Below are positions 58,541 through 60,440 of a stretch of DNA of 64,000 bases, one piece after another. A program made the translations under genes and the position numbers. Numbering within the stretch: the first letter of the stretch is position 1; each line of letters starts with the position of its first letter. Under the pieces are notes generated by a model. It did not search any database. It saw only the letters and a list, made by a program, of their open reading frames with translations, and was not told where the DNA came from. Origin of the DNA: Escherichia coli (lineage in GTDB: Bacteria; Pseudomonadota; Gammaproteobacteria; Enterobacterales; Enterobacteriaceae); the NCBI RefSeq assembly GCF_024700885.2, contig NZ_CP117016.1; one strand, 5' to 3'.

Positions 58541-58742
58541 TTAAGTAACACCCACAATTATCGCCCACTATCTGGTCCCGAAAAATGGGACCAGCGTTTC
58601 ATATTATTAAGCATCACCTTTCATTCATTTTTTCATCACAATCTTACAAAATGAGCGTTTTTTGATAGAGCAATTCTGCCAATACTTTATTTTATATTGA
58701 TCAAATTAATACTATGAATAGAGAAAACGGAAGGAGCGTTCT

Positions 58743-60440
58743 ATGCAACTGCAACATGGAAAAAATAATACACAACAATATATATTTGGCGACTTTGTAT
58801 TAAAAAACAATGGAATATTATTATTCAAAAACAAAGAATATCATATTCCACCGAAAGAACTTGGCGTTATCATTCTATTACTTAATGCTGACGGTGAAAT
58901 TGTTAGCAAAGAAGAGATTATCGATAAGGTCTGGAGCGCGAGTGTTGCCAGTGATGAATCTCTAACACGATGTATTTATGCATTGCGCAAACTTTTGCAT
59001 GAGAATAAACAGTGTAAGTATATCGAAACGGTCTATGGTCGTGGATACCGTTTTACTGTACCTATTGTGATTGTGACCGATAATGAACCGGTAAAGTCGA
59101 CCACCACTCTTGCCGTTTTTCCCTTTCGTACCGAAGGTTCGATCAATGTTCTAAAACTCCATTACGAACTTGTCCAGGGCCTTTCAAAATATGCTTTTTG
59201 TGGTTTAGATATTTTACCCGCTTCGGTAACAAATGAGGCCAGTGATTTCTCCACTATCCATCAGTTTATCAATAAAACAGGTCCAGAATATTATATTATG
59301 GGTCAGGTCGTTCACTATGGTAAAAACTGGCGTTTATTTATTGAGTTAATTCATGCCAGAACACATAAATTGATTGATCATCAAAGTATTGATTTCCACC
59401 CCGATAATCCTCTTTCCGTATTATTATCACAAGTAATTAATATTCTTATTGAAAAAATACCCAACATTAATTTTAAATCTATTAATACACAACAAATGCC
59501 ATCTCTGGATTCTGCTGTTATGTATATGAATGGCAGAATGGAAATGTATCGTTATACACCAGAGAGTTTGAAACGAGCATTAGTAATATTTAGAGATTGT
59601 GTGAGTACGCAACCGCAAAATACCTTGCCCTACTGTTGCCTGGCGGAATGCCATATATCATTAGCCCTCCTTGGACTCAGTGAACAAAAACAAGCAATAA
59701 CTACGGCAGTAACCTCCATTGAAAAGGCTCTTGAAATTAACCCTTCAAATTCTCAGGCATTGGGTTTACTGGGTTTAATCAGTGGGCTAAAAGATGAACA
59801 TTCAGTGTCTAATGTGCTATTTAAGCAAGCACATTTACTCAAACCTAATTCGCCAGACGTTTATTATTATCAGTCTCTGCTATGTTTTTTGAACGGTGAT
59901 CTTGCAAGAGCATTTAATCTAATAGAAAAAAGTATTGCTCTTGAACCCAATAAAATGGGTATAAGCATTCTTAAATTAATTATACTTTATTACACATCCC
60001 CCCTCGATAACGCGATATCTTTTGCATTAAATCTTAACAGTCAAAACACCTGTAATAATCCAATTATTACCTCTATTCTGGCTATGTTCATGGCACTGAA
60101 AGGACATAATGACAAAGCCAAAAGTTTATTGCTTAAACTTGAGCCTGAACATGGTCTTGATTACACCTGTGTTAACTCGCTTTATACGAAATTTCTGATC
60201 TATGGCGCATCTATAAAAAATGACATTATGAAGTTACTGGCAAATATTAACACCAACAAAATCAATGGTGTTATTTTGCCGTTGATTTACACTGTGTATG
60301 GTAAAAAAGAATATGAAAAGCGCTGGCAACAATTAATTAAAGACAATGATTTATGGTCAAATGTTTTGCTTCATGACCCCCGTTTGCTCAGTGTAAAAAA
60401 TGAATTTAATACTATCGGTGTGATGCGTACTTCTGCGTAA
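58743..60440 (+). CDS. eilA: HilA-like transcriptional regulator (N-terminal OmpR/ToxR-type winged helix, C-terminal TPR-like region)
   Basis: 565-aa ORF with SD aaggag; N-terminus FGDFVLKNNGILLFKNKEYHIPPKELGVIILLLNADGEIVSKEEIIDKVWSA...SLTRCIYALRKLL...YIETVYGRGYRF parallels the HilA DNA-binding domain nearly motif for motif; about 200 bp of AT-rich leader upstream. Confidence 0.85.
   Translation: MQLQHGKNNTQQYIFGDFVLKNNGILLFKNKEYHIPPKELGVIILLLNADGEIVSKEEIIDKVWSASVASDESLTRCIYALRKLLHENKQCKYIETVYGRGYRFTVPIVIVTDNEPVKSTTTLAVFPFRTEGSINVLKLHYELVQGLSKYAFCGLDILPASVTNEASDFSTIHQFINKTGPEYYIMGQVVHYGKNWRLFIELIHARTHKLIDHQSIDFHPDNPLSVLLSQVINILIEKIPNINFKSINTQQMPSLDSAVMYMNGRMEMYRYTPESLKRALVIFRDCVSTQPQNTLPYCCLAECHISLALLGLSEQKQAITTAVTSIEKALEINPSNSQALGLLGLISGLKDEHSVSNVLFKQAHLLKPNSPDVYYYQSLLCFLNGDLARAFNLIEKSIALEPNKMGISILKLIILYYTSPLDNAISFALNLNSQNTCNNPIITSILAMFMALKGHNDKAKSLLLKLEPEHGLDYTCVNSLYTKFLIYGASIKNDIMKLLANINTNKINGVILPLIYTVYGKKEYEKRWQQLIKDNDLWSNVLLHDPRLLSVKNEFNTIGVMRTSA

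Follow-up and report, generated by a model that had tools for sequence, protein, structure and literature searches.

EilA, a HilA-family regulator of the Escherichia coli eip island, and an upstream sequence box that may link it to SicA-type chaperone operons

The intact open reading frame at 58743-60440 (+ strand) of the window (the whole stretch of 64,000 nucleotides of E. coli DNA analysed here) begins with ATG, encodes 565 amino acids and is, judged by its sequence, eilA, which has been characterised before and whose product is an E. coli relative of HilA, the invasion regulator of Salmonella. Our explanation as a whole, in which we have high confidence, is that EilA is a soluble HilA-family one-component activator and that its gene has a box in a promoter of its own and would be wired to EivF and a chaperone. 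The core of this interpretation is correct and already known, since both the targets of EilA and its replacement of HilA have been published. EilA has been described since 2006 and serves as a marker of EAEC and ExPEC, and the standard annotation pipeline assigns its name; identifying the gene therefore adds nothing new. The one fresh detail is the 17-nt box upstream of eilA, which may already stand in Sheikh et al. 2006 (Mol Microbiol 61:338), reportedly the original study of EilA in enteroaggregative E. coli 042. The analysis also indicates that a HilA-type regulator and its regulon are recognisable from raw sequence alone. The box offers a concrete and cheap hypothesis for what switches on the cryptic ETT2/eip system: if EivF together with free chaperone drives eilA, artificial expression of the pair should lock the system on, and a locked-on system would make ETT2 function testable.

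Table 1. Features of the eip island around eilA, in window coordinates
Feature	Coordinates	Strand	Basis or remark
17-nt box, ATGAGCGAATTTTGATA	53379..53395	+	same box as before eilA; 61 nt upstream of eicA, head of the translocon operon
eicA, SicA/LcrH-type translocator chaperone	53457..53954	+	annotation; NCBIfam LcrH_SycD 114.8 bits (cut-off 104.8), SicA 150 bits
eipB, SipB/YopB-type translocator	54202..55983	+	ORF, annotation, NCBIfam
eipC, translocator in SipC position, without family match	55996..57147	+	ORF, annotation; named in PMC4210603
eipD, IpaD/SipD-type needle-tip protein	57191..58540	+	ORF, annotation, NCBIfam
eipD-eilA intergenic spacer, 202 bp, 33.7% GC	58541..58742	+	6 substitutions relative to EAEC 042
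Terminator-like hairpin, 8-9 bp stem	58572..58594	+	31 nt past the eipD stop; scan, fold
17-nt box, ATGAGCGTTTTTTGATA	58651..58667	+	75 nt upstream of the eilA ATG; 3' half TTGATA, a near-consensus -35
Candidate weak -10, CTTTAT	58685..58690	+	17 nt after TTGATA; putative, read from sequence
Shine-Dalgarno AAGGAG	58731..58736	+	6 nt before ATG; conserved in E. albertii
eilA CDS	58743..60440	+	565 aa, stop included in coordinates; HilA-family transcriptional regulator EilA
OmpR/PhoB/ToxR-type winged-helix DNA-binding domain, residues 11-112	58773..59078	+	Pfam, PDB matches, AF2, Foldseek
Alpha/beta middle domain, residues 121-238, not helical repeats	59103..59456	+	AF2 secondary structure, Foldseek
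TPR-like helical-repeat domain, residues 255-564	59505..60434	+	AF2, Foldseek, weak Pfam TPR and NCBIfam TPR-family matches
GC-rich palindromic hairpin in the 49-bp convergent eilA/adhesin spacer	60454..60475		fold and scan
Giant inverse-autotransporter adhesin gene, 3' part	60490..64000	-	iatC here, air/eaeX in 042

Identity, architecture and published function of EilA

In genomes with 100% DNA identity to the open reading frame, RefSeq annotates the product as "HilA family transcriptional regulator EilA"; the gene is present in 730 of 5426 complete E. coli genomes, and its island is the eip (selC-B) island of the species. The original prediction of a HilA-like regulator was borne out, as EilA scored 952.3 bits against NCBIfam NF009037, the HilA/EilA equivalog model (cut-off 589), with residues 1-552 aligned to model positions 2-553 of 553, and was collinear with Salmonella HilA over 544 residues without a single gap (198/544 identical, 36%; 61% positives; E 1e-130). 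The HilA sequence for this comparison was taken from a Salmonella SPI-1 contig. The true HilA and sicA were reached by a DNA pattern scan and exact-protein look-ups, Salmonella HilA and SicA being absent among the matches listed from two large protein searches. A HilA N-terminus, used as bait only and with no figures drawn from it, had no close match among the retrieved proteins. Linkage to type III secretion systems (T3SS) is also seen for relatives from E. albertii, E. fergusonii and another E. coli island.

The AF2 model of EilA (pLDDT 82) comprises three domains. The N-terminal stretch of about 110 amino acids proved to be the OmpR/ToxR-type DNA-binding domain that had been proposed: Pfam Trans_reg_C, the OmpR/PhoB-type winged helix, covered residues 31-104 (E 8e-16, model positions 2-77 of 77), the first 117 residues matched solved DNA-binding domains of CadC, PhoB-family regulators and ToxR in a PDB sequence search, the winged-helix region aligned to the structures of CadC, PhoB and SaeR, and Foldseek matched it to the DNA-binding domain of CadC (5ju7, TM 0.84, rmsd 1.9). 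The conserved residues of the winged helix-turn-helix are present: an alignment of 47 family members has 24 invariant columns, and 20 of them fall within residues 37-101; the residues invariant among these relatives span the helices and the wing (PKEL, W64, ESLxRCxYxxR and IxTxYxxG). The remainder of the protein had been described as helical-repeat-like, which is right for approximately residues 255-564, modelled as TPR-like by AF2 and matched by Foldseek to the TPR superhelices of OGT, CTPR, Tom71 and NlpI, and wrong for residues 121-238, an alpha/beta domain with Foldseek matches to the CadC periplasmic domain and the lipoprotein GNA1162. A Pfam search gave no Response_reg match in EilA. The maximum 19-residue Kyte-Doolittle mean was 1.42, hence EilA has no membrane segment and is therefore cytoplasmic. 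EilA is a soluble one-component activator without a receiver domain, in which a winged helix is followed by alpha/beta and TPR-like domains.

According to published reports, eicA, eipB, eipC, eipD and the adhesin air/eaeX need EilA of EAEC 042 for their expression (PMC4210603, PMC7058095, PMC11068852), as do eivF and eivA on the unlinked ETT2 type III secretion island (PMC4210603, PMC11068852), and the 042 eilA mutant shows reduced adherence and less biofilm (PMC4210603, PMC7058095, PMC11068852). EilA is also reported to substitute for HilA in Salmonella by turning on invF (PMC4210603). The suggestion that the regulator controls both the translocon operon and the adhesin gene matches these experiments, which concern a 99%-identical protein, and activation of T3SS genes by the present allele would be expected by analogy with it. 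As a master switch of the island, EilA answers to the description for the island targets, and its published reach is wider, taking in ETT2 genes elsewhere on the chromosome. The accompanying statement that HilA activates the sip operon is valid as a pathway and not as a direct action, Salmonella HilA acting on the sip genes via InvF (PMC4210603). Cells grown in LB do not express eilA, whose expression LB:DMEM induces (PMC4210603); secretion through ETT2 has not been demonstrated to date, and which signals induce eilA is not known (PMC7058095). In the nearest complete genome sctQ is frameshifted and one ETT2 gene is truncated, and secretion output may therefore be impaired in this lineage.

Gene neighbourhood and the eipD-eilA spacer

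The gene lies directly downstream of SicA-, SipB- and SipD-type genes, and both open reading frames and annotation show, as originally predicted, that it is flanked by the translocon genes on one side and, on the other, by a giant adhesin gene with Ig repeats that is convergent to it. The adhesin gene extends past the end of the window and its promoter lies outside it. The hairpin in the convergent spacer (-16.8 kcal/mol, z -4.7, on one strand and -17.1 kcal/mol, z -4.4, on the other) is a probable two-way terminator. No InvF-like gene was found within the eip island, from which hilD, hilC and the apparatus genes are likewise absent, and Rfam gave nothing in or near the region, the only matches in the window being tRNA-Sec and JUMPstart. 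A 60-aa open reading frame between eicA and eipB was not counted as part of the system because no other species has a counterpart and the 042 copy carries a frameshift.

The GC content is 33.7% in the spacer, 35.3% in the eilA coding sequence, 37.7% in the island, 48% in the window and about 50% in the core genome, and 26% of 202-bp windows of the island are as AT-rich as the spacer or more so. The AT-richness ascribed to these 202 bp is thus real relative to the host genome and ordinary within the island. The view of the spacer as one long AT-rich leader is not supported, a terminator-like hairpin occupying its first third and a promoter-type box lying near the gene. The hairpin (-14.7 kcal/mol, z -2.6) probably ends the eicA-eipBCD transcript; E. 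albertii has a hairpin at the same place with a T run behind it (z -4.3), and in E. coli the T tail is poor, CGTTTCATAT. A scan for the sigma-70 consensus gave no + strand promoter in the spacer.

This arrangement bears on whether eilA might lack a promoter and be expressed by read-through as the last gene of the eicA-eipBCD transcript. Such an origin would suit a gene in the same orientation as eipD and directly downstream of it, the poor T tail and the lack of a consensus promoter; we nevertheless consider it very improbable, given that the hairpin after eipD is conserved, with a proper T run in E. albertii, that the spacer holds a conserved box with TTGATA, and that a 500-bp upstream fragment of eilA drove a reporter in ST69 strains, though this fragment takes in the 3' end of eipD (PMC7058095). 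We infer instead that eilA has its own promoter inside the spacer, downstream of the eip terminator-like hairpin; with the box as the promoter mark, the eilA 5' UTR would be only about 45 nt.

The original prediction took the 202 bp for an AT-rich leader and plausible H-NS-silenced promoter; in its full form, the whole stretch would be a long leader and promoter, and eilA would be controlled mainly by relief of H-NS. In favour of this, the GC content of the island is low (37.7%, with about 50% in the core), eilA is not expressed in LB, H-NS binds and represses the promoter of the paralogue ygeH (PMC4210603), and MxiE- and InvF-dependent promoters are H-NS-repressed as well (PMC9769918, PMC7595419). 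Since the island is AT-rich and the paralogue is so repressed, H-NS silencing of eilA is plausible by analogy. The full reading, with a long leader and H-NS as the main control, appears rather unlikely, because the AT content of the spacer does not rise unusually above that of the island or the eilA coding sequence, and because the spacer opens with a conserved terminator-like hairpin and carries a promoter-type box 75 nt from the ATG. No mention of an H-NS effect on eilA was found in the text of the 042 hns papers.

The 17-nt box and the proposed control of eilA

The copies of the box before eilA and eicA are exact (17/17), and none of 200000 spacer shuffles reached a 16/17 match. When the spacers of E. 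coli and E. albertii are compared, the eilA copy falls in the block that is conserved best, and E. albertii carries copies of 16-17/17 at the same two places, upstream of eilA and of eicA. Besides these eip copies, the SicA-type chaperone promoters of five other systems matched at 15-17/17; in all, seven chaperone-gene promoters outside SPI-1 were examined, from six species or islands and from ETT2, and each has the box at 15-17/17. It is found ahead of SicA-type chaperone genes of Escherichia, Salmonella and Yersinia (sycB). The SPI-1 copy, before the true sicA located through the genome scan, agreed with the Escherichia box at 13/17, the same as background matches. One strain, which matches the window at 99.98% identity, has an exact copy in its ETT2, 86 nt upstream of ygeF-ygeG-ygeH, and the same strain encodes an InvF-like AraC protein in ETT2 (InvF model E 1.7e-54). 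K-12 is without eip, eivF and the box at ygeF. An orphan copy beside setC is a further candidate target site. The gene ygeH, the other HilA-like gene, lies downstream of the boxed ygeF-ygeG.

The upstream regions of Salmonella hilA and prgH scored no better than 13/17, not above background, and no box was found near the adhesin promoter at the two loci examined. In a further eip-like island, from a different E. coli, the chaperone gene is preceded by the box and the eilA-like gene is not, so the link between box and regulator gene is not universal. A genome-wide pattern scan gave 111 matches, mostly by chance and in unrelated taxa. A HilA-box pattern, TTKHAT-N5-TTKHAT, was also tried and dropped (27 matches against 18.7 expected, none tellingly placed).

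These distributions suggest that the eilA, eicA and ETT2 ygeF-ygeG promoters have the same element and that SicA-type chaperone operons conserve the box as part of their promoters. In PsicA the InvF site and the -35 overlap (PMC7595419), YsaE-SycB activates the sycB promoter (PMC3467454) and the published MxiE box is GTATCGTTTTTTTAnAG (PMC9769918). An overlapping 17-mer at eilA, TGAGCGTTTTTTGATAG (58652-58668), agrees with the MxiE box at 12/16 positions, the eicA copy at 9/16 and SPI-1 PsicA at 10/16, with only the CGTTTTTT core in common. The PsicA string had no literal match in the paper text searched.

Under the wiring that we consider most likely, EilA would turn on eivF, and EivF with free chaperone (EicA or YgeG) would in turn activate eicA-eipBCD and feed back onto eilA, with H-NS silencing of the AT-rich island as a possible further layer. 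We propose it because eilA, eicA and ygeF-ygeG share the box and because such chaperone operons are targets of InvF-type activators with their chaperones in Salmonella and Yersinia. By analogy with sip control in Salmonella the box would point to an InvF-type intermediate here, and it suggests that an InvF-type activator and its chaperone feed back on eilA. A more specific form of the proposal, that eilA of E. coli and E. albertii is under positive feedback from a secretion-sensing EivF-chaperone pair and that the loop is open in SPI-1, is put forward tentatively, at somewhat less than an even chance.

The box could instead be the binding site of EilA itself, which would then activate eicA-eipBCD and ygeF-ygeG directly and regulate its own gene. 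Direct repeats spaced by about 11 bp are the sites to which OmpR/PhoB-type proteins bind, and a reading of the box as ATGAGC-N5-TTGATA gives two hexamers at 11-bp spacing; the box precedes genes reported to be EilA-dependent, and the eip island itself has no InvF-like gene. Set against this, the box is kept before SPI-1 sicA and Yersinia sycB, which are reported targets of InvF-SicA and YsaE-SycB; EilA replaces HilA at invF, yet the HilA target region prgH-hilD has no box above background; and the EilA-dependent adhesin promoter has no box. We judge a site for EilA to be unlikely and favour EivF with chaperone as the pair that would act there.

Comparison with known systems

EAEC 042 carries the same gene (locus EC042_RS21315), identical at 561 of 565 residues and differing by four amino-acid substitutions. 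It shares the neighbours yicS, eicA, eipB, eipC, eipD, eilA, the adhesin gene and nepI, and the 202-bp spacer is near-identical. The two differ in the adhesin, annotated iatC here (12.9 kb in the near-identical strain, 11.4 kb in 042), and in the P4-like selC-A island of 042, which is absent here.

Salmonella HilA has the same family and architecture as EilA, and both genes lie near sip-type translocon genes. Unlike SPI-1, the eip island lacks hilD, hilC, invF and the apparatus genes, and the injectisome (ETT2) is encoded elsewhere; hilA has a 1090-bp spacer beside hilD without the box, whereas the 202-bp spacer of eilA has one. YgeH of ETT2 is the second HilA-family regulator of E. coli; its 042 allele complements a Salmonella hilA mutant (PMC4210603), and its gene lies downstream of one for a SicA-type chaperone, the operon of which has the box found before eilA. 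EilA scored 228 bits against the YgeH model (cut-off 800) and therefore belongs to a distinct subfamily; YgeH is shorter (458 aa), expressed in LB and H-NS-repressed (PMC4210603). CadC and ToxR have the same type of winged helix (sequence E 2.5e-11 to CadC, about 1e-6 to ToxR), and past the DNA-binding domain the EilA model also matches the CadC periplasmic domain (Foldseek); EilA differs from both in having no membrane segment.

In comparison with the promoters that depend on InvF-SicA, MxiE-IpgC and YsaE-SycB, the eilA box shares the CGTTTTTT core, with 12/16 positions of the MxiE box, and is of the same sequence type as the element before SPI-1 sicA and Yersinia sycB. Its last six letters resemble a -35 hexamer, and InvF and MxiE sites are reported to have such an ending (PMC7595419, PMC9769918). 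Unlike in Salmonella, the box here precedes the gene of the HilA-like regulator itself, with EivF as its putative binder.

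Identity of eilA and its island

The window covers the selC tRNA region of the E. coli chromosome and is 99.98% identical across all 64 kb (11 mismatches) to strain elppa4, the nearest complete genome. A low-GC island (37.7% GC vs ~50% in the core) begins at 53.4 kb and is inserted between yicS and nepI. It carries the genes listed in the table, together with a 60-aa ORF, annotated as a hypothetical protein, which is probably not a real gene; this ORF is frameshifted in enteroaggregative E. coli (EAEC) 042, and tblastn against E. albertii, Yersinia, Salmonella and the second eip-like island of E. 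coli returned no counterpart. The Ig-like repeats of the adhesin gene (62630-64000, minus strand) have 56-61% GC vs 35-39% for the rest of the island and match many copies along the full elppa4 gene (82-89% identical, offset roughly 0.3 kb); the gene measures 12.9 kb in elppa4 and 11.4 kb in 042.

Features of the eip island, in window coordinates
Feature	Position	Strand	Remarks
eicA	53457-53954	+	
60-aa ORF	53964-54146	+	between eicA and eipB; doubtful
eipB	54202-55983	+	
eipC	55996-57147	+	
eipD	57191-58540	+	
Terminator-like hairpin	58572-58594		31 nt 3' of eipD stop; fold -14.7 kcal/mol, z -2.6
17-nt box ATGAGCGTTTTTTGATA	58651-58667		75 nt 5' of eilA ATG; in best-conserved spacer block, E. 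coli vs E. albertii
Shine-Dalgarno AAGGAG	6 nt 5' of ATG		
eilA	58743-60440	+	565 aa
Giant inverse-autotransporter adhesin gene	60490 onward	-	convergent to eilA; continues past window end

Elsewhere in the window, the stretch 48879-49181 has tRNA-Sec (selC) with a rhuM fragment directly 3' of it, and the 11-kb P4-like integrase island (selC-A) present at selC in EAEC 042 is absent. The JUMPstart element (21371-21409, minus strand) 5' of rfaQ, where the LPS core operon begins, and the low-GC waa/rfa core-type region at 12-18 kb are ordinary. Two tiny pseudogene fragments (BRO family and DnaD-like) between yicC and yicG (30956-31233) are a prophage scar.

A megablast search with 58400-60600 matched 730 of 5426 complete E. 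coli genomes (731 records). Many records were 100% identical, all named "eilA: HilA family transcriptional regulator EilA"; one record was classed as plasmid rather than chromosome. The protein shares 561/565 residues with EilA of EAEC 042, where the gene order is the same and the eipD-eilA spacer differs by only 6 substitutions in 202 bp. It scored 952 bits against the NCBIfam HilA/EilA equivalog, spanning positions 2-553 of 553 at a cut-off of 589, and only 228 bits against the YgeH model (cut-off 800), and Pfam placed Trans_reg_C at residues 31-104 (E 8e-16), with weak TPR matches. Salmonella HilA, reached by a DNA pattern scan that led to the SPI-1 sicA promoter and then by exact-protein look-ups along SPI-1, aligned over 544 residues with 0 gaps (36% identity, 61% positives, E 1e-130). 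These results bear out the original prediction of a HilA-like protein with an OmpR/ToxR-type DNA-binding domain. Across 47 aligned family members, 24 columns are invariant, and 20 of these fall within residues 37-101, in the winged helix (its helices and wing); the residues whose loss had been named as grounds for rejecting the assignment are thus retained, and it stands.

The AF2 model (pLDDT 82) has three domains: residues 11-112 form a winged helix, 121-238 an alpha/beta domain and 255-564 helical repeats. Its Foldseek matches were TPR superhelices and, in CadC, the DNA-binding domain (TM 0.84) and the periplasmic domain; no membrane segment was found in EilA. The remainder of the protein had been described as helical-repeat-like, which holds for the last domain but not for the alpha/beta domain.

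As cited in PMC4210603, PMC7058095 and PMC11068852, Sheikh et al. (2006) reported that the EilA regulon comprises eicA, eipB, eipC, eipD and the adhesin air/eaeX, plus eivF and eivA of the unlinked type III secretion (T3SS) island ETT2, and that adherence and biofilm are reduced in eilA mutants. When hilA is mutated in Salmonella, EilA and YgeH of 042 each bring back secretion of SipA and transcription of invF (PMC4210603). Expression of eilA is off in LB (PMC4210603), and the 500-bp region 5' of the gene is induced in LB:DMEM (PMC7058095). The central idea, that a HilA-like switch controls both translocon operon and adhesin, thus holds and has already been published for EilA; the feature is real and was correctly recognised, and the sole possibly new element is an InvF-type box in the eilA promoter with the feedback loop it implies.

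The eipD-eilA spacer

The supposed 200-bp leader (58541-58742) is the spacer between eipD and eilA. Its GC content, 33.7%, is low by E. coli standards but unremarkable within the island, where 26% of windows of its size are equally or more AT-rich and the eilA coding sequence has 35.3% GC. The spacer also contains a terminator-like hairpin; E. albertii has one at the equivalent position, with a T run behind it (z -4.3). The 3' end of the box, TTGATA, matches 5/6 of the -35 consensus, and a weak -10 (CTTTAT) follows 17 nt later; if these form the promoter, the 5' UTR would be ~45 nt, not 200. A consensus promoter scan of the spacer reported no promoter, as is usual for activator-dependent promoters.

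Copies of the box and its predicted activator

An exact copy of the box (ATGAGCGAATTTTGATA) lies 61 nt 5' of eicA, where the translocon operon starts. E. albertii keeps both copies, the eicA one at 62 nt and the eilA one at 75 nt. Four other systems also carry the box ahead of a SicA-type chaperone gene. The match is 17/17 both in a second eip-like island, from another E. coli, and in a variant T3SS of Salmonella enterica; it is 16/17 in a T3SS from a gut metagenome and 15/17 at sycB of Yersinia enterocolitica. In SPI-1, the canonical promoter of sicA has a related TTGGGCGTTTTTTGAAT (13/17, sharing the GCGTTTTTTGA core) 92 nt 5' of sicA. In ETT2 of elppa4 (locus L127, 7723-7739) an exact box stands 86 nt 5' of ygeF-ygeG-ygeH; in K-12 (L128) it is lost, the sequence 5' of position 7756 being replaced, with the deletion edge 16 nt 3' of the box site. 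None of 200000 shuffled spacers reached 16/17.

InvF with SicA activates the sicA promoter from a site overlapping the -35 (PMC7595419), YsaE with SycB activates the Yersinia sycB promoter (PMC3467454), and the Shigella MxiE box, GTATCGTTTTTTTAnAG, likewise overlaps the -35 (PMC9769918) and matches the eilA box at 12/16 positions. ETT2 of elppa4 encodes an InvF-like AraC protein (InvF model E 1.7e-54, under the equivalog cut-off). Given these precedents and this protein, the box is best read as a predicted site for EivF plus chaperone. The main rival is that EilA itself would bind there, which suits the hexamer-N5-hexamer layout. It is harder to square with a box that is conserved at promoters dependent on InvF but missing both at prgH, a HilA target, and in the promoter region of the EilA-dependent adhesin gene. 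Action of EivF and chaperone on the box would place eilA under a secretion-coupled activator, with positive feedback.

Further copies were noted. An orphan ATGAGCTATTTTTGATA (16/17; 49392-49408, minus strand) faces selC in the AT-rich spacer between the rhuM remnant and setC, with only a 28-aa ORF 3' of it; this spacer is present in 3679/5426 E. coli genomes, far more than have eip, and the copy may be what remains of the promoter of a T3SS-related gene since lost, or a chance match. The second, divergent eip-like island (L011, E. coli GCA_009799345.1), at a different locus, encodes an invasin-like adhesin, a chaperone, three translocators and an EilA-like protein (57% identical), and has the box before the chaperone gene, not before the regulator gene. 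L005/L006 (protein P0010, source name E. fergusonii; Logan read-run assemblies) contain a gene whose HilA-like product shares 51% identity with EilA. A 15/17 box precedes this gene at 93 nt, an iagB-like gene follows it, and it faces prgH-orgA-type genes, in a SPI-1-like layout. A genome-wide scan found a near-identical string, (C/A)AATGAGCGTTTTTTGAAAG, just 5' of a 100-aa ORF in Pluralibacter (L038), just 5' of an ATG in Hamiltonella defensa (L067), and in Pseudogulbenkiania (L093), where no adjacent ORF was read. Such sites could be InvF-type promoters that serve effector genes.

Silencing, secretion machinery and comparison with hilA

H-NS would reasonably be expected to silence an acquired island as AT-rich as this one; ygeH is repressed by H-NS (PMC4210603), and a literature search that included the 042 hns studies found no H-NS data on eilA. 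The eip translocators need an injectisome encoded outside the island. In elppa4, ETT2 is almost complete, but sctQ (YscQ/HrcQ) is frameshifted and one neighbouring gene truncated (L127, 20294-22116), so the injectisome may be defective though eilA and eip are intact, and the regulator may outlive the machine under its control.

In Salmonella, neither the 1090-bp hilD-hilA spacer nor the spacer between prgH and hilD scored above background for the box (at most 13/17); with the box read as a site for EivF plus chaperone, eilA, unlike hilA, would itself be under an EivF-chaperone activator.
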